From the NCBI GenBank assembly GCA_016926755.1, contig JAFGNZ010000231.1, positions 1,008-65,007 on the forward strand: a DNA stretch of 64,000 bases. The letters run 5' to 3'. The notes under the pieces were generated by a model. The model ran no database searches, was not told where the DNA came from, and saw only the letters and a list, made by a program, of their open reading frames with translations. The translations under genes were made by a program, and so were the position numbers. Positions 3,574 to 36,691 of this stretch are shown here, piece by piece (the first letter of the stretch is position 1; every line of letters starts with the position of its first letter). This DNA comes from Myxococcaceae bacterium (GTDB lineage: Bacteria; Myxococcota; Myxococcia; Myxococcales; Myxococcaceae).

Positions 3574-6201
3574 TTACGCGTGGGAGAAGGCCAGATCCCA
3601 GTCCCCGCTGGGGCTGAGCCCCACGCGCAGCTGGGTAGGCGTCGTCCCGCTCGCCAGGTGCTCGAGCAGCTCTCGCGACAGCTGGGGCATCAGCGAGGCG
3701 CGCAGCACGTGATCCACGTTGCGGGCGCCCGAGTCCATGTCCGTGCACCGCCGGGCGAACTCCTCGATGACCTCCGGGGCGAACTCCGTCTTGATGCGGT
3801 GGGAGGTGTGCAGCCGGCCCGCCAGGGAGTTGAGCTTCATGGCCGCGATGTCCTTGAGGATGTCGCGCGAGATGGGGACGTAGGGCACCACGCTCATGCG
3901 GGCCAGCAGCGCCGGCTTGAAGTGCTTGGTGAGCGCCGGCTTGATCGCGTCTCGCACCGCCTCGATGGTGGGCGGCTCGGGCTGCTGGAACATCTGCGTG
4001 ATGACGTCCGTGGCCAGGTTGCTGGTGAGGATGACGACGGTGTTCTTGAAGTCCACCGTGCGGCCCTCGCCGTCGTTGAGCACGCCCTTGTCGAACACCT
4101 GGTAGAAGAGGTTGAGCACCTCCGGGTCCGCCTTCTCGCACTCATCCAACAGCACCACGGAGTAGGGCCGCTGCCGCACCGCCTCCGTCAGCATGCCGCC
4201 CTCGCCGTAGCCCACGTAGCCCGGGGGCGAGCCGATCAGGCGCGACACGGTGTGCTTCTCCTGGAACTCCGACATGTTGATCGTCGTCAGGAAGCGCTCG
4301 CCGCCGTAGAGGGCGTCCGCCAGCGCCAGCGCCGTCTCCGTCTTGCCCACGCCGCTGGTGCCCACGAAGAGCAGCACGCCGATGGGGGTGCTCGGGTTGC
4401 GGATGCCCGCGGTGGAGGCGCGCACCGTCTCCGCCACCGTGCGCAGCGCCATGTCCTGCCCGCGCACGCGGCTGCGCAGCGTGTCCTCCAGGTTGAGCAC
4501 CGCGTTCAGCGTGCCCGAGCGCATCTTGCCCACCGGGATGCCCGTCCAGCTGGCCACCACCCGGGCCACCACGTCCGCGTCCACGTCCGCGTGCACCATG
4601 GCGGACTCGCCCTGCACGCGCTTGAGGGCCTCGCGGGCCTCGGTCACCTTGGCCTTGAGCGCGTCCTTCTCGGCCGCCTCCTTGGCCGCGTCCAGCTCCG
4701 CCTGGGCCTTCTTCAGCGCGTCCACCGCGCCGCGCTGCTCCTCCCAGTGCGCGCGCAGGGTGGCCACCTGGTCCTGCAGGGCCTTCAGCCGCTCCTCCAC
4801 CGTGGGGCCGTCCTCCGGCGGTGGCGTCTGGCCCGAGGCCAGCTCGCGCTCCCGGGCGGCCTTCTCGCTCTCCAGGGAGGCCAGCTTCGCCTCCAGCTCC
4901 ACCAGCTCGTCCGGCCGCGCGCTCTGCTCCAGCTTCACCCGCGCCGCCGCCGTGTCGAGCAGGTCCACCGCCTTGTCCGGCAGCTGCCGGCCGGAGATGT
5001 AGCGGTGCGACAGCTCCACCGCCGCCACCACCGCCTCCTCGCGGATGGTGACGTTATGGGCCTTCTCGTAGGTGGGCCGCAGGCCGCGGATCATCAGCAC
5101 CGCGTCCTGCTCCGAGGGCTCGTCCACCTTCACCGGCTGGAAGCGACGCTCCAGGGCCGGATCCTTCTCGAAGTACTTCTTGTACTCGGACCAGGTGGTG
5201 GCGGCCACGGTGCGCAGCTCGCCGCGCGCCAGCTCCGGCTTGAGCAGGTTCGCCGCGTCACCGCCGCCCTGCGGCCCACCCGCGCCGATCAGCGTGTGCG
5301 CCTCATCAATGAAGAGGATGATCGGCTTGGGCGAGGCCTTCACCTCGGAGATGACGGCCTTGAGCCGGTTCTCGAACTCGCCCTTCACGCCCGCGCCCGC
5401 CTGCAGCAGGCCCAGATCCAGCCCCAGCACGTCGAAGTTCTTCAGCGACTCGGGCACGTCTCCCAGGGCGATGGCGCGCGCCAGGCCCTCCACCAGCGCC
5501 GTCTTGCCCACGCCGGGCTCGCCCACGATGATCGGGTTGTTCTTGCGCCGCCGGGACAGCACGTCGATCACCTGGCGGATCTCCCGATCACGGCCGAAGA
5601 TCGGATCGATCTTCCCGTCGCGCGCCTTCGCCGTGAACGAGGTGGTGAAGCGCGAGAGCGCGTCCTCGCCCCGAGGCGCTGCGGCACCACCCGCCGGCGC
5701 GGCGCCCGTGCCCGCCGCGGCCACCTCCGCCGCCTCCTTGGAGCGGCTGACGATCTCCTCGAAGGCCTTCTTGAGCGCCTCGGTGGAGATGGCGTCCAGC
5801 TCCGGGTACGACTCGGCCGAGTAGCGGGCGGAGCGGGCGATCCACTGCGCCATCAGCGCGCCCGAGCGCAGGCGCAGCGCCCCGTGCTCCAGCGAGGCCA
5901 GCAGCCACGCATCCTCGAACCACTGGAAGAGGCTCTCGGAGAACACCGGCCGCCCGGCGTTGCCGGTGCGCAGCCCGCGCAGCGTGTCCTCCACCCGCGC
6001 GATCACCTGGGTCCGATCCACCTGGAACTGGCGGAGGATGAGCGAGGCCTCGCCCTCCTCGTCGTCCAGCAGCCCCCGCAGCATGTGCTCGGGGACGATC
6101 TCGTAGCAGCGGGCGGTGCTGGCCCGGGAGACGGCTCCTTCCAGCATGCGCGTGGCAGTGGAAGTGAGTCGCCGGACGAGGGTCTTCGGTTCAACGCGCA
6201 T
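3574..6201 (-). CDS. tssH: T6SS AAA+ ATPase ClpV (TssH)
   Basis: 875 aa. Two AAA+ modules with Walker A motifs GEPGVGKT and GTSGVGKT, and a ClpB-like coiled-coil middle region. Located between tssG and fha. Confidence 0.95.
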   Translation of the reverse strand: MRVEPKTLVRRLTSTATRMLEGAVSRASTARCYEIVPEHMLRGLLDDEEGEASLILRQFQVDRTQVIARVEDTLRGLRTGNAGRPVFSESLFQWFEDAWLLASLEHGALRLRSGALMAQWIARSARYSAESYPELDAISTEALKKAFEEIVSRSKEAAEVAAAGTGAAPAGGAAAPRGEDALSRFTTSFTAKARDGKIDPIFGRDREIRQVIDVLSRRRKNNPIIVGEPGVGKTALVEGLARAIALGDVPESLKNFDVLGLDLGLLQAGAGVKGEFENRLKAVISEVKASPKPIILFIDEAHTLIGAGGPQGGGDAANLLKPELARGELRTVAATTWSEYKKYFEKDPALERRFQPVKVDEPSEQDAVLMIRGLRPTYEKAHNVTIREEAVVAAVELSHRYISGRQLPDKAVDLLDTAAARVKLEQSARPDELVELEAKLASLESEKAARERELASGQTPPPEDGPTVEERLKALQDQVATLRAHWEEQRGAVDALKKAQAELDAAKEAAEKDALKAKVTEAREALKRVQGESAMVHADVDADVVARVVASWTGIPVGKMRSGTLNAVLNLEDTLRSRVRGQDMALRTVAETVRASTAGIRNPSTPIGVLLFVGTSGVGKTETALALADALYGGERFLTTINMSEFQEKHTVSRLIGSPPGYVGYGEGGMLTEAVRQRPYSVVLLDECEKADPEVLNLFYQVFDKGVLNDGEGRTVDFKNTVVILTSNLATDVITQMFQQPEPPTIEAVRDAIKPALTKHFKPALLARMSVVPYVPISRDILKDIAAMKLNSLAGRLHTSHRIKTEFAPEVIEEFARRCTDMDSGARNVDHVLRASLMPQLSRELLEHLASGTTPTQLRVGLSPSGDWDLAFSHA

Positions 6202-6242
6202 CAGGTGGCTCCTCTACGGGGTTTCGAGAAAGGGTTGCAGGC

Positions 6243-7436
6243 TCAAGGGCTGGCCGGGGCCTCGCTCCCGGCGGCCTGCGGCAGCGGGACGATCCGCGTC
6301 CTCAAGCGGGGAACTGCGGAGCGACGGCCGCCCAGGTAGGTGTTGCGCCCGAGCCGGGCGGGAGACTTCATCTTCAGCTGGAAGGCGCCCAGCACGTCCT
6401 CGCGCACACCCAGCTCCAGGGCGCACTCGAGCGGATCTCGCACCACCAGCGTCACCACCTCGCGGACCAGCGGGCTCAGATCCCCCTCGGGCAGCAGGCG
6501 GTGGTAGGTGGCCCCATCCAGCGGGGCGATGCCGATGATGAACTTCCCGGCGCGATCGAACAGCCGCCCGCCCAGCATCGAGGTGCGGCCCAGGTGCGAG
6601 TTGAGCTTGCCCAGCATCATCCGCTGCTCGGGCTCCACCTCCACCCAGCTCCCCTCGAACTGCTTGAGGGTGACGCGGGCCTCGCCCAGATCCTCACGCA
6701 GCACGTCCGAGAGCGCCAGCTCCAGCGTCCGCGCCGTGCGGGCCCGGGTGGACAGCAGGGGCGCCAGCCGCAGCAGCTGGGGCACGGACAGCCCCACCGC
6801 GGGGCCGCGCTCATAGGTGTCCAGGCCCGTGAGCGCCAGCACCCGCCGGGACCACACGTCGTCCCCGGCGCGCGTCGTCTCCGCCTCGGGCGTGTAGCGC
6901 GACAGCGCCCGGTACAGCAGCGACAGCAGGCGGTGATGGAAGAGATCCAGGAACTGCCGCCGCAGGGGCCGGTCCGGATCCTCCTGGGCGATCTCCTCGA
7001 CCATGTAGCCCGGCAGCGGAGAGGAGGCGCCGGTGAGCCCCAGGAAGGTGGTGACCACCTCGAAGACGTGCTTGGGGCCGCCCTGCTGCACGCCCCACTC
7101 TTCCTTGCGAGGCACCAGCCGCACCTGGCTCACGTCCCCGGCGCTGAAGACGAGCGACGGATCATGCTTGAAGCGGATGGCCTCCTCGGAGGGAGGGCCG
7201 TCGCCGCCCACGCGCACCGCGCTGGCCGTGAGCCGCTCCAGCAGGGCCACCAGCGAGGCGAACCGCACGTCCCCCGCCGTGAAGTCGAGCGTCGCGTCCA
7301 GCCGGAAGCGGACCGTCTGGTCGCCCCCGCCCTGCGCGCGCACCTGCATCGCGCCGGACGTCAACCGCTCCAGCCGAGTGGCCAGAGAGAGGGTCGCGAG
7401 CTCCCCGGGCTCCTCGTCCGGCTCCTCCTGGCTCAT
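6243..7436 (-). CDS. tssG: T6SS baseplate protein TssG
   Basis: Track ORF 6243..7469 trimmed to the ATG at 7436 (MSQEEPDEEPGE..), which makes an ATGA overlap with the tssF stop at 7433. Size and position (after tssF, before clpV), plus motifs such as FLGLTGASSPLP and RLLSLLYRA, fit TssG. Confidence 0.9.
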   Translation of the reverse strand: MSQEEPDEEPGELATLSLATRLERLTSGAMQVRAQGGGDQTVRFRLDATLDFTAGDVRFASLVALLERLTASAVRVGGDGPPSEEAIRFKHDPSLVFSAGDVSQVRLVPRKEEWGVQQGGPKHVFEVVTTFLGLTGASSPLPGYMVEEIAQEDPDRPLRRQFLDLFHHRLLSLLYRALSRYTPEAETTRAGDDVWSRRVLALTGLDTYERGPAVGLSVPQLLRLAPLLSTRARTARTLELALSDVLREDLGEARVTLKQFEGSWVEVEPEQRMMLGKLNSHLGRTSMLGGRLFDRAGKFIIGIAPLDGATYHRLLPEGDLSPLVREVVTLVVRDPLECALELGVREDVLGAFQLKMKSPARLGRNTYLGGRRSAVPRLRTRIVPLPQAAGSEAPASP

Positions 7437-28435: not shown

Positions 28436-28684
28436 CTAACGTGAGCGCCTGACTCGTACCACGTCGCCTCGAGTGTCATCGATCGCCAGCTCTACCCACC
28501 GGCCACGCTCGACCGCAAAACGGACGAGCCAGACCCGCACGTCCCGCACCGGAGAGGGCTTCTCCGGGCCACCTTCGCTCAACTCGATGTACTGCTGCTC
28601 GGCGGTGGCGAGCCTGGCCTCGCGAGGGACCTCCTTCTCCTCGCGGACGGCCTCCGCGATCGCCTGAGCCTGTTCCCGGGTCAT
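28436..28684 (-). CDS. small PepSY-like protein
   Basis: 82 aa. MTREQAQAIAEAV...VRVWLVRFAVERGRWVELAIDDTRGDVVRVRRS. Its start overlaps the upstream stop by 4 nt (28681-28684). Confidence 0.5.
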   Translation of the reverse strand: MTREQAQAIAEAVREEKEVPREARLATAEQQYIELSEGGPEKPSPVRDVRVWLVRFAVERGRWVELAIDDTRGDVVRVRRSR

Positions 28685-29163
28685 GGAGCGGGCGCCTCCG
28701 CGGGCAGCAAGGAGATGACGGCACGCCGGGCGGGGTTGATGCGCACCAGGAGCCCCAGGGAGGGCTCCTCTCCGGGCGGCTCCAGGCGCAGCTCAAGGCA
28801 CCCCTTCTCCCCCTGTCTGGACTCGACCAGCTTCAGCCCCGGACGCAACAGAGCGCTGGCGCGCGCGATGGCGAGAGCCTCCGCATCCGTCAGCGGCTCC
28901 CAGCGGCACCGCTCCCATTTGTCGTGGTCCACATACCCCACGACGCGATTGTCGGCATCGAGCACCACCTCGAACTGCCCGTAGCGCCTCCAGAGCACCA
29001 TGGATCGGTCGACTGCGTACCGCAGCTCGACGGGATCCCAGACCAACGCCTGCTCGGGCGGTAATTCGATGGGCTCGGCCAGGTAGTCACCACTCAGGTG
29101 TTGCTGCGCGAACGCCAGACAGTCGGCGATCGCCTTCTTCTGGAGCGTCTTCAGGTCGAACAT
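28681..29163 (-). CDS. hypothetical protein with PepSY-like C-terminal module
   Basis: 160 aa. LTDAEALAIARASALLRPGLKLVESRQGEKGCLELRLEPPGEEPSLGLLVRINPARRAVISL. Co-directional and tightly packed with its neighbours. Confidence 0.5.
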   Translation of the reverse strand: MFDLKTLQKKAIADCLAFAQQHLSGDYLAEPIELPPEQALVWDPVELRYAVDRSMVLWRRYGQFEVVLDADNRVVGYVDHDKWERCRWEPLTDAEALAIARASALLRPGLKLVESRQGEKGCLELRLEPPGEEPSLGLLVRINPARRAVISLLPAEAPAP

Positions 29164-29206: not shown

Positions 29207-29743
29207 CTACTGCTCGTCCAACTCCGTGTCGCGTTCGATCTGCGTCTTCAGGGTGGCAATGAGCTCCTGATGAGCGCGAACGGCCGCCTCCTCTTCGCCC
29301 TCGGAGGCCTCTATCACTCCGAAGAGGATGTACTGGCTCGGTGTGGGGCCGCGGCCGTCGATCGCGACGATGTACCGGCGGCCCGTCTGCGCGAAGTCAG
29401 GGCCTCCCCATGCTTGGATGGTGATGGGGCTCTTCAGCTCCGCTCCATGGAGCACGCGCTCGACCTCTACCTCCAGGAGGACCTTGGCCCCCCGTGATCC
29501 CTGTTGCAGAGCCTGAACCTTGCGTACCTTGACGAGCGCGACGCGCCCCCACTCCTGCTCGATGCACTCCCGAAGCGGCTGTGCATCCATCATCCTGGGC
29601 ATTCGTTCCACTCGGTGCTCCCGCGGTGCCGCCGTGCCCGACCGGACTGGAGGGGCTGCGTCTGAAAGTCCTGGCCTCGCCGAGCATGCCAGCAAGAGCA
29701 GCAGAGCAGTCGCTGGCCACCCTTGTCCGCTCCTCAGCTGCAT
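29207..29743 (-). CDS. lipoprotein directly downstream of the extended vgrG (immunity candidate)
   Basis: Track ORF trimmed to the ATG at 29743 (MQLRSGQGWPATALLLLLACSARPG), giving a signal peptide with an LLAC lipobox. It begins 32 nt after the vgrG stop. It is a paralogue of 27450..27821. Confidence 0.6.
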   Translation of the reverse strand: MQLRSGQGWPATALLLLLACSARPGLSDAAPPVRSGTAAPREHRVERMPRMMDAQPLRECIEQEWGRVALVKVRKVQALQQGSRGAKVLLEVEVERVLHGAELKSPITIQAWGGPDFAQTGRRYIVAIDGRGPTPSQYILFGVIEASEGEEEAAVRAHQELIATLKTQIERDTELDEQ

Positions 29744-29774
29744 GAAAGCACCTCGCCTCTCGAAAAACACGGTC

Positions 29775-32700
29775 TTACTTCAGCAACGAGACGACGCTGG
29801 TCACGACCCCGGCGATGGCCCGGCCCAGCGCGGTGAAGGGCTGGAGCAGCGGATGGTCGATGGCGCCCCCTCCCTGACCGAACAGGACAGGGCGCATGCT
29901 GCCGTAGTAGGGGGCGCCCACGTCATAGAAGACAGCGGGGATCTTCGCGGGATTGAGCTGATAGGAATTGCCCCACTTCTGGTAGAAGTTCCGGGCCATC
30001 TCACGCGCGTCGCCATCCGGGATGTAGCAGCGGAAGGCCAGGTAGTTTCGAGTCCCCCGAGAGGTGAAGGCATCCGCCAGACTCCGCTCCCACCCAGCGA
30101 CACACGTGTCCATGTAGACGAGGTACCGCGGCACGCTGGGGACCGCCGCATCCCGGACCTCTCTGTCTCCGAACACCGTCTCCCCCAGGACCACCACGCT
30201 CCGCCAGTTCCCTGGCAGCGCTCTCGGTGGATTCCTGTCGGGGTCATCGTTCAGCTGGAGGGTGTCGTCGTTGCGGTCCACGACGTCCCCATGGCTGGCG
30301 TGATGATACGCGTACGTATTCCGGAGAACGGACCCCCACTTGCGTACGGAGAGCACCCGCGTGGTGCATGAGTACTGGCCCACCTTGTGGTGGCTGTGAG
30401 CGCTCAGCAGGCCGGCGATCTCCGCCATCTCCGCGCGAGTCGTCAGCGCCCGACGCGGATCCGGAGGCGTGTCCGCGATGGTGTCGCTGACGCACATGTG
30501 CCAGTACTCGACCTGGAGCGTCTTCGCCTTGTCCTTCCCCAGATCCGAGGGGCTCTCCGCCGTCAGCCCCTTGTGCGACAGCTTCACCTGGAGGGAGTAG
30601 AACGGCTGGTCCCAGGGATCCCACGGCAGGTGCTTGGCCTCGAAGGTGAACTCCGGCGCCTTGCCGGTGGCCTTGGCCACCACCTTGCCGCCCTTCACCT
30701 CCAGATCCTTGATGGTGCCTTCCTTGATCCGCGCCCCGGTGGCGCAGTGAAGGATGGCGATCAGCGCCTTGGTGCCGTCCGGGACGTTCTCGGTCTTCAC
30801 CTCGATGGTCACCTTGGCCTCCGCGGGGATGGCGCCCCCCGGAGGAGCACCGCTGTTGTGGTTGGGCACGACCTTGCCCTTGCTCCACTTCAGCTCCTTG
30901 ATGGAGGGGACGGGCTCCTGCTTCTCCTTCTTCGGATCCTTGGGCTTCTTGCCCTTCAGGCTCTTCTGCGAGCCGGCCGCCACCAGCTTGACCTTGGAGC
31001 CCTTGAACTTCGTGTCGCTCCCGTCGACGGTGATGCTCTTGCCGGTCCACTTGACGTTGCCGGACTGCTCCACCGTCAGCACCACCTTGCCGCCGACCGA
31101 GATCGTCAGCTTGTCCGCCTTCAGCTCGAACTCCTTCGCGCTCCAGCTCGTGGCGGCCTTGATCGCTACCGCTGCGTCCCCTTTGACTTCGTCCGTGAAG
31201 TCCTTGGCGACCTCGACCGCCAGCGTCTCCTGGATCGTCGCCTTGGACTCGCCGAAGACCTTCGAGACGAGCTTGCCCTCGACGTTCTCCTGTCGATCCT
31301 CCGCGATGAGCTCCGTGGAGGAGCCGGCGATGATCTCGTTGCGGACGCCGATCGTGGACTCGTTCATCCCCATCCCGACCGTCACCGCGTAGGCGCCCCC
31401 CACCGTCAGCGCCTTCGCCGCGCCGATGGTCTCCAGGGCGGCCATGGCCACGCTCACCGTGGAGGCCATCCCCACCGTAACGCTCTGGCTGCCGGTGATG
31501 CGCTCCCGCTGATCGAGCCCGACGTCCACCTCGCGGTTGCCCGTCACATCCAGCGTCTGGCTGCCCTGGATGGCGCGGGTGTCGTCCAGCTGCACGGTCA
31601 GCAGCTGGTTCTGATCCACGCTCTGGGTGCGGTTGCCGCCCACCGACAACGTCTCGTTCGCGCCGACGGACTGGGTCTTGTCGTTCTCCACCTCGATCTG
31701 CCAGTCCTTCTGGCCATGGAGGTGGATCAGCTCGGAGCCGGTCGCGTCCTCGTACTGCAGCTCGTTGTAGCCGTCGCCGCCCAGGCTGGAGTTGGAGCGC
31801 AGCGTGCTCTTCGTCTTCTCGTCCGGCAGCGGCAGCGGCGTGGGGTTCTCGCCGTTGTAGACCGAGCCCACCACCAGCGGCCGATCCGGATCTCCCTCCA
31901 GGAAGCGGACCACCACCTCCTGGCCGATGCGCGGCAGGAACAGGGCACCCCACCCCGCGCCGGCCCAGGCCTGGCTGACGCGGATCCAGCACGAGCTCTT
32001 GTCGTCCCCCGGCGCCTCGCGATCCCAGTGGAACCGGACCTTGATGCGGCCGTGCTCGTCCGTGTGGATCTCCTCGCCCGAGGGCCCCACCACGATCGCC
32101 GTCTGTGCCCCCGCGATCGTCGGCGCGGCCGTGAGCCGAGGTGGGCGGAACGGCACCGCCGCGGGGATGGCGTGGAAGCGGCTCTGGTAGGCCTCGTGCC
32201 CACCGAAGTGCTCCACCGACACCAGCAGGTAGTCCCCCTCGAAGGTGGCGTCCGGGTGCTCCGTCAACGTGAAGTGGAAGCCGGGCGCCAGGCGCACGCT
32301 CGAGCACTCGCCCTCACAGCGCTCGGTGTCGTGGCGCAGCTCCTCCAGGCGCACCTTCGCCGTGTCCTTCCCCACGCCGGGCTCTACGTACTTGCCCGGG
32401 GCGTCGTAGACCTCCAGCACCGTATCCGCGTTGGCCGCCTCCCGCGTCGCCGTCAGATCGAGCGCCGGGCGGACGAAGTCGAAGTCCCGCAGCGCCACGG
32501 CCCCGGGCCGGATCCGGGACGCGCGCTCCAGGGCGAGCACGTGCTCCTCACCGGGCTCGGCGCCGGTCGGCCCCCGGAAGGGCAGGCGCGACTCGCCCGG
32601 GAGGGGGCTGTGCGCGTCAGGCCCGTCTCCCAGCATGAGGACGTGGGAGTCCTCGGTGTGCTCGAAGAAGTAGAAGATGCCCTCGGACTCCAGCAGGCGC

Positions 32701-33188
32701 GAGACGAAGTCGAAGTCCGACTCGCGGTACTGCACGCAGAACTCCCGGGGCGCGTAGCTGCCCTGGAGGCTGCCGCCGTGGGCGATCCCCGCCTCGTCCA
32801 GCACGGCCTGGACGATCTCCGGGACGGTCTTCTCCTGGAAGATCCGGCTGCGGCGGGTGTGGCGGAGCTTCCAGAACTCGGGCACCAGCAGCGCCCGGTA
32901 GCGCATGCGCCCCTGCCGCTCGCCCAGCGCCTCCACTCGGCCGATCAGGCCGTGGACGAAGCGGGAGGCGCCGTTCACCGCGTCGTGCAGGGAGAGCAGG
33001 CCCTTCTGCCCCAGCATCTCCCGCGGCTGCGGGGCCGTGTCCTGCGCGGCCGCCAGCTCCACCGTGAAGGCGAAGGCGCGCGACAGCTCCTCTCGTCCCG
33101 AGAACGCTGTGACGGCGAGCTCCTGCGAGGTGTATGGCCCCGCCTTGAACTCAAAGGAGATGCGGCGGGTCTCCTGTCCTGAGGCCAC
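29775..33188 (-). CDS. vgrG: VgrG (TssI) spike protein with ~395-aa C-terminal extension (evolved VgrG)
   Basis: This is the real part of the 2009-aa track ORF. A GTG at 33188 gives (M)ASGQETRRISFEFKAGPYTSQELAVTAFSGREELS..., a canonical VgrG N-terminus. gp27/gp5 blocks are present (VQYRESDFDFVSRLLE, HTDEHGRIKVRFHWDREAPGDDKSSCWIRVSQAWAG, PRIGQEVVVRFLEGDPDRPLVVGSVYNG), followed by the beta-helix and then an unrelated extension. Everything upstream of 33188 in that ORF is antisense to the other vgrG. Confidence 0.85.
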   Translation of the reverse strand: MASGQETRRISFEFKAGPYTSQELAVTAFSGREELSRAFAFTVELAAAQDTAPQPREMLGQKGLLSLHDAVNGASRFVHGLIGRVEALGERQGRMRYRALLVPEFWKLRHTRRSRIFQEKTVPEIVQAVLDEAGIAHGGSLQGSYAPREFCVQYRESDFDFVSRLLESEGIFYFFEHTEDSHVLMLGDGPDAHSPLPGESRLPFRGPTGAEPGEEHVLALERASRIRPGAVALRDFDFVRPALDLTATREAANADTVLEVYDAPGKYVEPGVGKDTAKVRLEELRHDTERCEGECSSVRLAPGFHFTLTEHPDATFEGDYLLVSVEHFGGHEAYQSRFHAIPAAVPFRPPRLTAAPTIAGAQTAIVVGPSGEEIHTDEHGRIKVRFHWDREAPGDDKSSCWIRVSQAWAGAGWGALFLPRIGQEVVVRFLEGDPDRPLVVGSVYNGENPTPLPLPDEKTKSTLRSNSSLGGDGYNELQYEDATGSELIHLHGQKDWQIEVENDKTQSVGANETLSVGGNRTQSVDQNQLLTVQLDDTRAIQGSQTLDVTGNREVDVGLDQRERITGSQSVTVGMASTVSVAMAALETIGAAKALTVGGAYAVTVGMGMNESTIGVRNEIIAGSSTELIAEDRQENVEGKLVSKVFGESKATIQETLAVEVAKDFTDEVKGDAAVAIKAATSWSAKEFELKADKLTISVGGKVVLTVEQSGNVKWTGKSITVDGSDTKFKGSKVKLVAAGSQKSLKGKKPKDPKKEKQEPVPSIKELKWSKGKVVPNHNSGAPPGGAIPAEAKVTIEVKTENVPDGTKALIAILHCATGARIKEGTIKDLEVKGGKVVAKATGKAPEFTFEAKHLPWDPWDQPFYSLQVKLSHKGLTAESPSDLGKDKAKTLQVEYWHMCVSDTIADTPPDPRRALTTRAEMAEIAGLLSAHSHHKVGQYSCTTRVLSVRKWGSVLRNTYAYHHASHGDVVDRNDDTLQLNDDPDRNPPRALPGNWRSVVVLGETVFGDREVRDAAVPSVPRYLVYMDTCVAGWERSLADAFTSRGTRNYLAFRCYIPDGDAREMARNFYQKWGNSYQLNPAKIPAVFYDVGAPYYGSMRPVLFGQGGGAIDHPLLQPFTALGRAIAGVVTSVVSLLK
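31986..32034. repeat. 49-nt run identical, in inverted orientation, to 34520..34568 (longest identical block within the vgrG/vgrG inverted homology)
   Basis: Hand alignment. The reverse complement of 31986..32034 is gttccactgggatcgcgaggcgccgggggacgacaagagctcgtgctgg, which equals 34520..34568. Further identical runs: 35 nt (32701..32735 vs 33771..33805) and 37 nt within 32041-32110 vs 34441-34510. Confidence 0.85.
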
Positions 33189-33308
33189 ATCATCCCCCTG
33201 GGCTAGAGCGACGTCGCCGGGGAAGGTAGCATGATCGCCCGTCTCTGGTGGACTTGCTGTAACCGGGGTGCCTATCGTGACGGCCCAGCTGAGAGGGGGA
33301 ACTACCTG

Positions 33309-35579
33309 GTGAGACCCGCTAGCGTCCTGACCGCCAGTCAGCCCGAGTTCGAGTTCGAAGCGGGCCCGTTCACCCAGGGAGAGCTCGCCGTCGTGGAGTT
33401 CGAGGCCCGGGAGAGCCTCTCCGGTCCCTACCGGATCGACGTCGTCTTCACCGCCTCCCCCGACATCGTCGTGGAGGCCGCCGACCTGCTCGGCCAGCCG
33501 GCCGCGCTGGTGGTGAACCAGGGCACGGAGGGCATCCGCTTCCTGCACGGCATCCTCTCCGAGCTGAGCCGGTGGAACGCGGGCGGAGGCCCCCAGCGCA
33601 ACCGCTACCGGGCCGTCCTCGAGCCGCGCTTCCACCAGCTGCGGCACACCCGCCGCAGCCGCATCTTCCAGCAGAAGAGCATCCCCGAGATCGTCCAGGC
33701 CGTGCTGGACGAGGGCCAGGTGACGTACGCCCTGGAGCTCCAGGCCTCCTACCCGCCCCGGGACTACTGTGTGCAGTACCGCGAGTCGGACTTCGACTTC
33801 GTCTCCCGGCTCCTGGAGGAGGTGGGCATCTTCTACTTCTTCCGCCATGAGCAGGGTGGGCACGAGCTGGTCCTCGCGGACTCTCCGAGCGTGCACGTCC
33901 CCATCCTCGGCGAGCCGCTCCTGCCGTTCCGGGATCCGGCCGGCATGGCGGCGGACGAGGAGTGCGTCTACGAGCTGAGCGGGAGGATGGAAGTGGTCCC
34001 CGGCGCGGTGGCGCTGCGGGACTTCGACTTCGTGCGGCCCTCGCTGGACATGACGGTGGACAGCAAGGCGTCCGAGGGTGATCCGGCGCTGGAGATCTAC
34101 GACTACCCGGGCAAGTACGAGGATCCCGATCCGGGCAAGGACGTGGCGAAGATCCGCCTGGAGGAGCTGCGCGCCCCGGAGCACGTGGCGTGGGGCCAGT
34201 GCCAGAGCCGGCGGCTGTGCCCGGGGTACAAGTTCGAGCTGACGGGCCACGCCGAGCCCGAGCTCAACCGGGAGTACCTGCTGCTGTCGGTGACGCACGA
34301 GGGGTACCAGCCGGAGGTCCTGCTCTTCGAGCAGCAGAGCGGGGGCCTGTCCGGGCGCAAGCCCTTCCGCAGCATCTTCCACTGCATGCCCTCGGAGGTG
34401 CCCTACCGCCCGGCGCGCAGGACACCCCGCCCCGTCATCCCCGGGCCCCAGACGGCGATCGTGGTGGGCCCCTCGGGCGAGGAGATCCACACGGACGAGC
34501 ACGGCCGGGTGAAGGTCCAGTTCCACTGGGATCGCGAGGCGCCGGGGGACGACAAGAGCTCGTGCTGGGTCCGCGTCAGCCAGGCCTGGGCCGGCCCAGG
34601 CTGGGGCGCGCTGTACCTGCCGCGCATCGGCCAGGAAGTGGTGGTGGACTTCCTGGAGGGAGATCCGGACCGGCCGCTCGTCACCGGGCGCGTCTACAAC
34701 GGGCACAACCCTCCCCCGGCGGAGCTGCCGGGCGCGCGGACCCAGAGCACGCTGCGCTCGGAGTCCAGCCCTGGAGGCGGCGGCTTCAACGAGCTGCGCT
34801 TCGAGGACGCCGCCGGCTCCGAGCAGATCTACCTCCATGCCCAGAAGGACATGGACATCGTCATCGAGAACGACAAGACGCAGTCCGTCGGCGGGAACGA
34901 GTCGCTCACGGTGGCCAAGGATCGGCGGCGGGACATCGGCGGCAACCAGTCGCTGACCGTCACGGGCAATGACGAGACGACGGTCCGCGGCAACCAGAAG
35001 CTGGACGTGGTGGCCAACCGGACGACGACGGTGAAGGGCAACCACACCGAGTCCGTCGGCGGCAACCAGGCCACCGAGGTGGGTGGCACGCACGCCCTCA
35101 ACGTGGCGCTGGCTTCCTCGGAGATGATCGGCCTGGGCAAGGCGCTCACCGTGGGCGGTGCCTACGCCATCACCGTGGGGGCCGCCATGAACGTGGCGGT
35201 GGGCGGGCTCAAGGCCGAGGAGGTGGGCGGCGCGAAGGTGGAGACGATCGGCGCGCAGAAGACCGAGAAGATCGCGGGCTCGCGCACGCTCACCGTCGGC
35301 AAGGAGATGTCGGAGGTGGTGGGCGAGGCGCGAACCATCGAGGTGGGCAAGGACCTGACCCTGAACGTCGGCGGGGCGCTGAACCAGGTGACGAAGAAGA
35401 CCCACAAGCTCTCCGCCAAGGAGATCGCGCTCGTGGCGGAGGACAACTTCACCATCACGGTGGGCTCGGCCTCGCTCACCTTCAAGAAGAGCGGGGACAT
35501 CGTCATCAAGGGCGCCAAGATCGAGGTGACCGCCAGCGGCGACGTCATCATCAAGGGCGGGAAGATCGGCGACAACTGA
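33309..35579 (+). CDS. vgrG: VgrG (TssI) spike protein, canonical length, on the opposite strand from the rest of the locus
   Basis: The track ORF starts at 33231. I prefer the GTG at 33309, which sits 8 nt after GAGAGGGGGA and gives (M)RPASVLTASQPEFEFEAGPFTQGELAVVEFEARESLS. The full gp27/gp5 core and beta-helix are present, ending ...IKGAKIEVTASGDVIIKGGKIGDN. Confidence 0.9.
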   Translation: MRPASVLTASQPEFEFEAGPFTQGELAVVEFEARESLSGPYRIDVVFTASPDIVVEAADLLGQPAALVVNQGTEGIRFLHGILSELSRWNAGGGPQRNRYRAVLEPRFHQLRHTRRSRIFQQKSIPEIVQAVLDEGQVTYALELQASYPPRDYCVQYRESDFDFVSRLLEEVGIFYFFRHEQGGHELVLADSPSVHVPILGEPLLPFRDPAGMAADEECVYELSGRMEVVPGAVALRDFDFVRPSLDMTVDSKASEGDPALEIYDYPGKYEDPDPGKDVAKIRLEELRAPEHVAWGQCQSRRLCPGYKFELTGHAEPELNREYLLLSVTHEGYQPEVLLFEQQSGGLSGRKPFRSIFHCMPSEVPYRPARRTPRPVIPGPQTAIVVGPSGEEIHTDEHGRVKVQFHWDREAPGDDKSSCWVRVSQAWAGPGWGALYLPRIGQEVVVDFLEGDPDRPLVTGRVYNGHNPPPAELPGARTQSTLRSESSPGGGGFNELRFEDAAGSEQIYLHAQKDMDIVIENDKTQSVGGNESLTVAKDRRRDIGGNQSLTVTGNDETTVRGNQKLDVVANRTTTVKGNHTESVGGNQATEVGGTHALNVALASSEMIGLGKALTVGGAYAITVGAAMNVAVGGLKAEEVGGAKVETIGAQKTEKIAGSRTLTVGKEMSEVVGEARTIEVGKDLTLNVGGALNQVTKKTHKLSAKEIALVAEDNFTITVGSASLTFKKSGDIVIKGAKIEVTASGDVIIKGGKIGDN
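34520..34568. repeat. partner of the inverted 49-nt identical run at 31986..32034
   Basis: See the partner entry. Both copies lie in the HWDREAPGDDKSSCW coding block of the two divergent vgrG genes. Confidence 0.85.
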
Positions 35580-35614
35580 GGCGGCCTGTCCGGCGCTCCA
35601 GGCGCGGGCTCCGC

Positions 35615-36691
35615 CTACCTCACAGGGCGCAGGGATACCGAGCTCGGGCGCCGAGCGGGCGGCTCGGGCGCGCGCCCGGGCTCGACGCGGATGGCGCTGA
35701 CCTCGAGCGGCTCGCGCTGCAGCACGAGGTGGCCCCGCCAGAGCATGAACAGCCTCATGGCGTCCGTGTCTACGATCACCGTGTCGAGGTTCAGCGGCAG
35801 CCACGTGTCCGGCTGGCCATGGCAGGCCACCAGCACGCGCGGCGGCGGGGTGCCGGGGAGCTGGAACGAGAGCCTGCCCTCGGGGGTGGCGTTGGCGATG
35901 ACGACGGGCTCCCCCCCCTGCAGGTAGCCGGGCGCGATCAGGCCGGGCGACGCGGCGTTGAGGAACCGCCGATCGAAGTCGCGCGGCAGCAGCGGCTTGC
36001 GGGACTTCTCCCAGGCCTCGTCGTAGGTGCCCGCCAGGGCGGCGCGGGGCTGCCAGTGGGGGCTGATGAAGCCGAAGCCCGCGGGCGGGGGAGTGTCTCC
36101 CCAGCCCTTCAGCGGCTGGGCGGGATCCTCCAGGTTGGGGAGGCGAACCCCCTCCTCGAAGCGGCCGCTCCTGGAGCGGAACCCCGTGCCCACCGGGTTG
36201 CGCGGCTCGAACTGGTGCCTGGCCGCGTCCGGATCGCTGCGATCCCAGCCGCCGAAGGCCCGCTCGTAGCGCAGGGGGATGCGCTCGAAGGGCACGGGCT
36301 TCGTCATGGAGATGCTGCCCATGCTCTTGAACCAGGCCCGATCGCCGATCACCCGCACGCCCTTCTGCAGGCCCCCGACTCGCAGCGCGACCAGCAGCTC
36401 GCGGGTGTTGCGCTCCTGCGCGTGGGCGTGGCCCACGAGGACCACGTCCGTGGCGGGCTTGAAGAAGGCGACCTCGGGCTCGTACCGATCGCTGGATTCG
36501 TCCGCGTCGTCCCAGCGCTTGCCCTTCAGCTCGAGGGGCGCCTGCTCCTCCGCCAGCGTGAGCGCGCCCTGAGGGCTGATCTCATAGGTGGCCTTCACCA
36601 CCGGGACGCAGAGCGGACGCATCTCCTCGTCCGCCAGGAAGAGCGGCTCGAACGTGAAGGGCGTGAGGTTCTCGATTCCGGGGTGCGCCAT
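35615..36691 (-). CDS. DUF2169 family T6SS accessory protein
   Basis: 358 aa. NLTPFTFEPLFLADEEMRPLCVPVVKATYEI..., ATDVVLVGHAHA, ERAFGGW, NPVGTGF and the C-terminal NLDTVIVDTDAMRLFMLWRG match the DUF2169 pattern usually found next to vgrG. Confidence 0.8.
   Translation of the reverse strand: MAHPGIENLTPFTFEPLFLADEEMRPLCVPVVKATYEISPQGALTLAEEQAPLELKGKRWDDADESSDRYEPEVAFFKPATDVVLVGHAHAQERNTRELLVALRVGGLQKGVRVIGDRAWFKSMGSISMTKPVPFERIPLRYERAFGGWDRSDPDAARHQFEPRNPVGTGFRSRSGRFEEGVRLPNLEDPAQPLKGWGDTPPPAGFGFISPHWQPRAALAGTYDEAWEKSRKPLLPRDFDRRFLNAASPGLIAPGYLQGGEPVVIANATPEGRLSFQLPGTPPPRVLVACHGQPDTWLPLNLDTVIVDTDAMRLFMLWRGHLVLQREPLEVSAIRVEPGRAPEPPARRPSSVSLRPVR

Follow-up and report, generated by a model that had tools for sequence, protein, structure and literature searches.

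Gene structure and domain layout of the VgrG protein

The DNA analysed here (hereafter the window) is a 64,000-nucleotide stretch of a Myxococcaceae bacterium genome (GenBank assembly GCA_016926755.1, contig JAFGNZ010000231.1, positions 1,008 to 65,007). It carries a vgrG gene whose product, a type VI secretion system (T6SS) spike protein, continues past its usual end into a long C-terminal extension, with a cassette of five small genes directly downstream. The extension is predicted to be a cysteine peptidase of clan CD with a caspase/CHAT-like fold.

The gene lies on the minus strand at window positions 33188..29775 and encodes 1137 amino acids (aa) plus a stop codon (start-codon scan and translation). 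Its start is the GTG at 33188, which has GGGGGA just before it; no other start codon lies among the 90 codons that precede the conserved N-terminus of VgrG. The guanine-plus-cytosine (GC) content of the window is ~69%, and program-generated lists of open reading frames (ORFs) are thus rich in over-extended frames. A 2009-aa ORF on the minus strand (29775..35804), which could mislead automated calling of the vgrG start, was rejected as a real gene; it is a high-GC read-through artefact across a divergent vgrG on the opposite strand.

The protein has the core of an evolved VgrG, with Phage_GPD (aa 32-330, E = 1.7e-90), Phage_base_V (aa 376-444, E = 5.2e-16) and the gp5 beta-helix (Gp5_trimer_C, aa 461-572, E = 7.4e-36) recognized by Pfam. 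The beta-helix ends in KFKGSKVKLVAAG (aa 727-739) and 398 residues follow, close to the ~395 of the original prediction. Positions within the extension are given below as 'ext' (ext numbering + 739 = VgrG numbering), and conservation counts are based on an alignment of 63 sequences (62 database homologues and the window). The parts of the protein are:

30972..33188, minus strand: VgrG core, aa 1-739, ending in KFKGSKVKLVAAG (Pfam, translation)
30909..30971, minus strand: Lys/Glu-rich linker, aa 740-760, containing KKPKDPKKEKQEP (lower model confidence)
30477..30908, minus strand: beta-sandwich (immunoglobulin-like, Ig-like) module, aa 761-904 (strands at ext 23-163 in the model, secondary Foldseek matches)
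29847..30476, minus strand: predicted CHAT-like clan CD cysteine peptidase domain, aa 905-1114 (model, Foldseek, weak Pfam CHAT matches, conservation)
30291..30293, minus strand: codon of His966, predicted to be catalytic; Gly967, also invariant, comes next (translation, invariant in 63/63)
30102..30104, minus strand: codon of the predicted catalytic Cys1029 (translation, invariant in 63/63)
29778..29846, minus strand: C-terminal hydrophobic/amphipathic helix, aa 1115-1137 (LLQPFTALGRAIAGVVTSVVSLLK; helix at ext 377-397 in the model)

The original prediction had placed the Lys-rich linker, the His and Cys codons and the 63-residue spacing between His966 and Cys1029 exactly where translation puts them. 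Within the linker, KKPKDPKKEKQEP spans aa 747-759 (window 30912-30950); a comparison of N-terminal regions shows a similar charged Lys/Glu-rich stretch directly before the module in many homologues.

Fold and conserved residues of the extension

An AlphaFold2 model built on the extension alignment has a predicted local distance difference test score (pLDDT) of 93.2 and a predicted template modelling score of 0.89, with lower values in the linker (ext 1-21 less confident; pLDDT 62-85 over the first two 10-residue blocks). It resolves a beta-sandwich of ~140 aa (ext 22-165), an alpha/beta domain of ~210 aa (ext 166-375) and a 22-aa helix (ext 377-397). The three-part layout proposed originally is retained in the model, with the sizes then given for the two modules, ~110 and ~250 aa, corrected to these values. 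The strand order in the alpha/beta domain is beta-alpha-beta-alpha-beta(His)...beta(Cys)-alpha-beta-alpha-alpha-beta; one strand (ext221-225) leads into His227-Gly228 and another (ext284-288) into Cys290, corresponding to His966-Gly967 and Cys1029.

Among the best 50 Foldseek matches listed, on which our structural reading of the extension rests, the top PDB entry is SAVED-CHAT (8tl0; E = 2.5e-5, prob 1.0, ~250 aligned columns), followed by metacaspase 4, separase, Csx29/TPR-CHAT, Dronc, gingipain R and the CHAT-bearing anti-sigma factor DdvA. SAVED-CHAT, metacaspase 4, separase, Csx29, Dronc and gingipain R match at prob 0.96-1.0. The predicted fold is therefore alpha/beta and its nearest solved structures belong to clan CD. 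Ig-like and carbohydrate-binding sandwiches are interspersed lower in the list and correspond to the N-terminal beta module; they include the carbohydrate-binding domain of Wzt for O-antigen (8dl0, 8dky, 7k2t) and 9jg8_C, a chain of a Bacteroides VgrG-bound cargo complex (prob 0.92). The beta-sandwich might bind envelope glycans or spike components.

CHAT is the sole Pfam family with a sequence-level signal in the protease domain. The window extension matches it (PF12770) with 13.8 bits (E = 0.041) over a stretch that includes both the His and the Cys, and weak matches (E<=0.1) occur in 41/63 family members, the best at 1.1e-6. The extension matches no NCBIfam or PADLOC model, and therefore belongs neither to a known defence system nor to a named family.

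Nine positions are invariant in the 63-sequence alignment (N218, H227, G228, C290, R305, G306, F313, W333 and P341, ext numbering). Judged from the alignment, the invariance of His966-Gly967 and Cys1029 exceeds chance. Fold, conservation and weak profile similarity support a clan CD, caspase/CHAT-like His...Cys fold for the extension, the layout recognized in the original prediction from a strand ending in His-Gly and a later strand ending in Cys. In addition, an acidic residue (Asp or Glu) occupies ext163 in 59/63 sequences, and the position two residues before the Cys (ext288) is Asp in 34/63, Ser in 18 and Asn in 11. The acidic ext163, at the end of strand beta1, and the Asp before the Cys hint, by sequence position, at cleavage after Arg/Lys.

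Distribution and carriers of the predicted protease family

A database search with the 398-aa extension retrieved 62 proteins, which align over 85-100% of its length (over 62-100% for a few), indicating that in nearly all homologues the beta-rich and alpha/beta parts travel together. The family is rare, since a full profile search across 1.84 billion representative proteins yielded just 150 relatives with E values up to 1e-3, 60 of them up to 1e-30. The N-termini of the homologues vary: VgrG, PAAR, Tox-PAAR-like, OmpA with PG_binding_1, a 229-aa region common to six homologues and without a Pfam match, short motifs (MPSPKSG.., MxIGExV..) and a ~90-aa unknown domain. The caspase-like His/Cys domain is C-terminal-most on these proteins and is preceded by swappable trafficking N-termini, which is the architecture of Tox-Caspase toxins. 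A true transmembrane helix followed by Lys/Arg forms the C-terminus in ~15/63 homologues, and an amphipathic helix is present in many others.

For context analysis, 19 genomic loci (denoted by L numbers) were recovered by genome scan. They come from at least six phyla (Planctomycetota, Verrucomicrobiota, Bacteroidota, Desulfuromonadota, Myxococcota and Proteobacteria). vgrG is immediately upstream of the protease gene in L005-L007, L009-L012, L018 and L019, and L006-L008, L018 and L019 have a PAAR gene behind the cassette. No vgrG was found within 8 kb in the Burkholderiales loci (L013-L017, L021), including that of Piscinibacter (Ideonella) sakaiensis 201-F6 (L021), the well-studied strain that degrades polyethylene terephthalate.

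Several N-terminal types recur among the homologues (proteins denoted by P numbers). The ~90-aa domain (..RPLN..AV..AD.E.YA.H..G.R.PL...DP....R.EW..LY..NGG), without a Pfam match, is found in P0032, P0034, P0040, P0048, P0049, P0053, P0054, P0057 and P0058, and we assume that it is the type present in the Burkholderiales loci L013-L017 and L021. A second type starts with MPSPKSG(T) or MNPKSG and continues into a long charged low-complexity stretch (P0006-P0013, P0019, P0024, P0027, P0028, P0030, P0036, P0056); one such standalone gene (L006, 7779-9107) lies just downstream of vgrG, and the motif may be an unrecognized T6SS cargo-loading tag. Another standalone class has ~20-30 N-terminal residues that start M-x-(I/L/V)-G-E-(L/P/S)-(V/I) (P0012, P0015, P0017, P0022, P0025, P0029, P0033, P0039 and the L001 gene at 6001-7209). 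In L001, vgrG was not seen within 6 kb and an Imm11 gene is directly upstream of the protease gene. Finally, distant relatives of the protease domain that lack the beta-sandwich (P0149, P0161; 1063-1071 aa) occupy the C-terminus of ~1050-1140-aa proteins with weak matches to Reprolysin-like metallopeptidases around residue 680; these may be two-protease toxins.

The accessory gene cassette

The original prediction listed two downstream ORFs (29207..29743 and 27450..29163) as rescue candidates; the region actually contains five genes:

29207..29770, minus strand: w187, 187 aa, with a lipoprotein-type signal (..LLLLLAC|S), paralogue of w123
28681..29163, minus strand: w160, 160 aa, cytoplasmic, first of a conserved trio (tblastn, hhalign)
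28436..28684, minus strand: w82, 82 aa, PepSY-like (weak evidence), ending in an invariant Arg-x-x-x-Ser-Arg, with a 4-nucleotide overlap with w160
27859..28398, minus strand: w179, 179 aa, putative tandem PepSY-like fold (weak evidence), C-terminal Arg (model, Foldseek)
27450..27821, minus strand: w123, 123 aa, at the usual lipoprotein position, without a signal peptide here (sequence comparison)

None of the five matches a Pfam or NCBIfam family above threshold, a PADLOC scan of the neighbouring small genes was likewise negative, and no immunity family, Imm36 and Imm57 included, was recognized among them.

Homologues of w82 and w179 follow the protease gene in 19/19 distinct loci with downstream DNA (tblastn; the count excludes L002, a duplicate of L001, and L004, which is cut off). 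In 14/20 loci, tblastn recognizes a w160 homologue immediately behind the protease gene, and inspection adds L014. The families of these proteins (F160, F82 and F179) occur in the order F160-F82-F179, and their stop and start codons mostly overlap, which indicates a single operon. The same set accompanies a standalone protease homologue in a Pseudomonadales metagenome-assembled genome, where the downstream genes (154, 82, 185 and 140 aa) resemble w160, w82, w179 and w123 (E = 2e-19, 3e-15, 7e-24 and 3e-3, respectively). Since homologues of w82 and w179 accompany the protease in each of these loci and the other two small genes usually do, the protease and its partners are not a simple toxin-antidote pair. 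Orphan copies of the trio, which would argue for an immunity role, were not found in the five w179 homologue contexts examined, a small sample from myxobacteria and related metagenomic contigs only; all five held the VgrG-protease gene in the same layout.

The lipoprotein family of w187 and w123 (37% identity between the two, E = 3e-17) is recognizable in most loci, in 8 by tblastn and in others by ORFs with signal peptides at the same position. In the deltaproteobacterial-type loci L010-L012, copies lie between F82 and F179. Family members outside the window have a signal peptide or lipobox. In the window, w187 has an intact lipobox and directly follows vgrG; the w123 signal was lost via a deletion and frameshift relative to Hyalangium orthologues. 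Upstream of w123 (27822-27900, minus strand), H. gracile encodes MAMNPRLGALCTLSLVFAC.. where the window has only '..AMNPTRAL..' in another frame; the hydrophobic core and lipobox are gone and the start is an internal ATG. w123 may be a decaying copy that has been replaced by w187.

Possible relationship of the trio to PepSY proteins

A member-by-member scan gave weak Pfam matches, all of them within the PepSY group, for F179 (DUF4901 in 3 members, 2.5e-4; FTP in 1) and for F82 (PepSY in 2 members, 0.02). In profile-profile comparisons, F179 is related to F160 (hhalign prob 79%, E = 1.6e-5) and F82 is weakly related to the C-terminal half of F179. An AlphaFold2 model of w179, built on a shallower alignment of database homologues, has a pLDDT of 77; its top Foldseek matches are the PepSY proteins CD1622, YpmB and YpeB, with further matches to vibriolysin and fungalysin propeptides (M4/M36). 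All top matches have E values of 0.06-0.18 and are mutually consistent and individually non-significant.

The C-terminal ends of the small proteins show a recurrent pattern. The conserved core of F82 closes in an invariant R...SR, at which 10/19 sequences stop exactly while the others run on; a C-terminal Arg of F179 is present in 13/19 diverse sequences and in 24/24 close ones. These endings co-vary with ext163/ext288 of the effector: an Asp/Asp pair accompanies F82 that stops at SR, and Glu/Ser or Gly/Ser pairs accompany extended F82, a pattern that is confounded by phylogeny. The effector relatives themselves end in Lys or Arg in 23/63 cases, typically as ..S-L-(F/L)-K; together with the partners' C-terminal Arg this could be meaningful for an enzyme with Arg/Lys specificity, for instance through self-inhibition by the effector's own tail, or be coincidence.

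T6SS gene cluster and age of the fusion

The locus is part of a T6SS gene cluster, with tssJ, tssK, tssL and tssM at window positions 21210-15917 on the same strand as vgrG. Upstream of vgrG are a second, divergent vgrG (33231-35579, plus strand, 782 aa) without an extension and a DUF2169 gene (35615-36691, minus strand). The divergent vgrG pair is also kept in Myxococcus stipitatus, Hyalangium gracile and related metagenomic contigs. Four further genes lie between the cassette and tssJ:

26874-27359, minus strand: Tox-PAAR-like gene
~26332-26840, minus strand: gene for a DUF6484 protein
25410-26300, minus strand: AHH-family nuclease toxin gene
24791-25489, minus strand: Imm11 immunity gene

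This separate effector module (24791-27359) is missing from the corresponding place in H. gracile, L023 and L025, where tssJ directly follows the cassette.

VgrG orthologues of 1135 aa in M. stipitatus (L022) and a metagenomic contig (L023) share 70-71% identity with the window protein over the extension and 66-77% over the core. In Hyalangium versicolor (L003) the orthologous protein bears this extension too, in H. gracile the same small genes lie behind a VgrG of 1135 aa, and four myxobacterial or related loci (L023-L026) have VgrGs of 1134-1136 aa followed by these genes, with tssJKLM directly after the cassette in three of them (L023-L025). The extension is less GC-rich than the core, as had been suspected (0.652 vs. 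0.696; at third codon positions, 0.88 vs. 0.95). The original prediction took this as consistent with a swapped-in module, and for recent history that idea was rejected: extension and core diverge in step among the myxobacterial orthologues, and the lower GC content is not the mark of a recent swap because these orthologues carry the same fusion. These comparisons indicate that the VgrG-protease fusion is old in myxobacteria and that the module moves between carriers on a deep evolutionary scale, the sense in which the swap idea survives.

Comparison with known systems

The best structural neighbours, SAVED-CHAT (8tl0) and Csx29/TPR-CHAT of the type III-E CRISPR Craspase (7zoq, 8eey, 7y84), have the same His-Gly-then-Cys order, but their identity to the window domain is only 11-14%. 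Unlike them, the window domain lacks a SAVED or TPR sensor and is on a secretion spike rather than in an intracellular signalling system; it is combined with an N-terminal beta-sandwich and a putative C-terminal membrane helix, and no PADLOC defence model fits.

In the staphopain/staphostatin system, a secreted cysteine protease is encoded in an operon with its cytoplasmic inhibitor, and M4/M36 peptidases have FTP/PepSY propeptides. The locus resembles both in having an exported protease co-encoded with small proteins that could hold it inactive (a putative role here), and differs in that the inhibitor-like proteins are separate genes, are three in number and accompany a predicted clan CD protease. 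Evolved VgrGs with enzymatic C-termini include V. cholerae VgrG3, a peptidoglycan hydrolase, and P. aeruginosa VgrG2b, a metallopeptidase. These likewise combine a VgrG core with a covalent effector domain and a downstream immunity gene, whereas the window payload is a predicted clan CD cysteine peptidase with four or five accessory genes, not one. The known examples also include a pesticin-like VgrG3cp (PMC9927483).

Caspase-like toxin or releasing domains (Tox-Caspase) of polymorphic toxins, including T6SS-delivered ones, were predicted computationally, with Imm36/Imm57 as listed immunity partners (Zhang et al. 2012, PMC3482391). They share with the window domain the caspase-like His and Cys fold at the C-terminus of a toxin, with T6SS among the delivery routes. 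The window system is set apart by description: its partners are three PepSY-like proteins and a lipoprotein, none of which matches Imm36/Imm57. The self-cleaving cysteine protease domains (CPDs) of MARTX and TcdB toxins are also of clan CD (family C80; PMC3482391). In both cases a toxin that is delivered contains a clan CD fold, and the window domain, too, might release itself at a nearby linker, but the CPD is located upstream of or between effector domains and is activated by inositol hexakisphosphate, whereas the window domain is terminal. No CPD structure was among the best 50 Foldseek matches listed for the extension.

Among the characterized T6SS effectors are amidases, lipases, nucleases, NADases and pore formers, as well as a small number of metallo- or papain-like peptidases. 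Our literature search found neither a characterized T6SS effector of caspase/CHAT-like (clan CD) type nor a description of this cassette, and no characterized equivalent for PepSY proteins with T6SS immunity or for Myxococcus VgrG effectors; CHAT-domain proteins are merely annotated near the T6SS variable region of Bacteroides fragilis (PMC11854122). That a T6SS carrier can bear a toxin domain of clan CD is, as a general idea, already known, while the family, its architecture of beta-sandwich and tail helix, and the multi-gene partner set are undescribed.

Proposed function and alternative explanations

From the modelled clan CD fold, the invariant His-Gly/Cys pair, the T6SS linkage and the conserved partner cassette, we infer a role for the domain as an endopeptidase toxin. 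The explanation that we favour, and regard as probable when taken as a whole, is an evolved VgrG with a toxic payload: the extension would be a CHAT-like cysteine endopeptidase of clan CD that is delivered by the T6SS and acts on the periplasmic side. The spike would fire the enzyme, with His966 and Cys1029 as its catalytic pair, into neighbouring cells, where the beta-sandwich would position or target it, the C-terminal helix would tether it to a membrane, and cleavage after Arg/Lys may occur, probably at the periplasmic face of the target envelope. Action on this side is suggested because the lipoprotein is the only exported partner and because some relatives have OmpA/PG-binding fusions. 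For the same reason, w187, as the only exported protein of the cassette, is the likeliest candidate for a periplasmic immunity protein. The trio (160, 82 and 179 aa) would bind the protease in the cytoplasm of the producer, as propeptide-like inhibitors and/or chaperones acting in trans. Given the hinted Arg/Lys specificity, the Lys-rich linker could allow self-release from the spike.

A more detailed version assigns control to two compartments: the trio would clamp the enzyme in the producer cytoplasm, the delivered protease would work in the periplasm, and the lipoprotein would protect kin. The C-terminal Arg residues of F82 (..R-S-R) and F179 would sit in the S1 pocket as product mimics, and F82 versions that continue past SR would be trimmed by the enzyme. 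Once delivered, the protease would use its tail as an anchor, set into the inner membrane from the periplasm, and would cut an envelope protein after Arg/Lys, and the N-terminal motifs of standalone relatives (such as the MPSPKSG.. seen downstream of vgrG) would be new T6SS loading tags. As a joint proposition, with the product-mimic, trimming, tail-anchor and loading-tag parts included, this version is rather doubtful.

Several points weigh against the extension being a periplasmically acting CHAT-like endopeptidase toxin. The window sequence is below the Pfam gathering threshold for CHAT (24 bits), and is thus not a CHAT member by the Pfam criterion. Searches of PDB sequences with the extension and with the 63-sequence profile gave only chance matches, so that the clan CD link depends on the fold and the weak Pfam matches. 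The His/Cys geometry and the S1 pocket are read from sequence and secondary structure, and the activity, toxicity and substrate of the domain are predictions. The PepSY assignment is tentative, as it draws on individually non-significant matches (E = 0.02-0.2) and a medium-confidence model. Both immunity families predicted for Tox-Caspase are absent among the downstream genes, and the window copy of w123 lacks a signal peptide. The compartment is a deduction as well, and it is just as conceivable that the cytoplasmic trio provides the actual immunity, in which case the target would be cytoplasmic.

This last possibility is the main rival: the protease would act in the target cytoplasm, the PepSY-like trio would be an immunity set of stoichiometric inhibitors, and the lipoprotein would have another role. 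The trio, not the lipoprotein, directly follows the effector in most loci, conservation among the partners is strictest for the 82- and 179-aa genes, and PepSY/FTP domains are known peptidase propeptide inhibitors (Pfam descriptions). The invariant ..SR of F82 and the mostly Arg-ended F179, co-varying with ext163/ext288, and the absence of a signal peptide from w123 also fit such a target. However, a gene for a signal-peptide protein or lipoprotein is recognizable in the cassette of most loci, across phyla, and in the window an intact lipoprotein copy directly follows vgrG. The OmpA/PG-binding fusions of some relatives also count against a cytoplasmic target, and a C-terminal transmembrane helix followed by Lys/Arg would fit insertion from the periplasmic side. 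On this evidence we consider a cytoplasmic target unlikely, though still a serious contender.

The domain could instead be mainly a self-processing (releasing) peptidase like the MARTX/TcdB CPD, cutting the Lys-rich linker to set something free from the spike and not itself a toxin. According to Zhang et al. 2012 (PMC3482391), the caspase-like domains of polymorphic toxins mostly serve as releasing peptidases; in addition, the charged stretch before the module recurs in many homologues, and the acidic residues hint at cleavage after basic residues. Yet the domain is C-terminal-most with only the 22-aa helix after it, leaving no separate toxin to release; dedicated accessory/immunity genes are conserved with it; and standalone forms have just 20-30 N-terminal residues before it. 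We judge a purely releasing role improbable, and self-processing and toxicity are not mutually exclusive.

More remote is the idea that the His/Cys pair carries out non-hydrolytic or non-protein chemistry, e.g., transpeptidation/ligation or cleavage of peptidoglycan stem peptides. Clan CD does include enzymes with transpeptidation/ligation activity (GPI8, legumain), fusions to PG_binding_1/OmpA occur in some relatives, the beta-sandwich bears a weak resemblance to sandwiches that bind carbohydrate (the Wzt domain), and the immunity candidate is predicted to be periplasmic. All close structural neighbours are endopeptidases, however, and we know of no clan CD peptidoglycan hydrolase, which makes such chemistry very improbable. 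A catalytically dead structural or cargo-binding module, for which the existence of Ig-like/transthyretin-like adaptors at VgrG C-termini and the weak match of the beta-sandwich to 9jg8_C might speak, is scarcely credible when 63 sequences from many phyla share His-Gly, Cys and several residues around them without variation and the same module also occurs without VgrG.

Implications for the T6SS of myxobacteria

In one myxobacterial clade, the VgrG-protease is the resident spike of the main T6SS cluster. Its partner genes, two or three PepSY-like genes and usually a lipoprotein gene, do not fit the rule of one effector and one immunity protein. The cassette is a tractable system for examining how a dangerous protease stays silent before export and is neutralized after delivery, and once the substrate of the protease is identified, a new weak point of the Gram-negative envelope could come to light.

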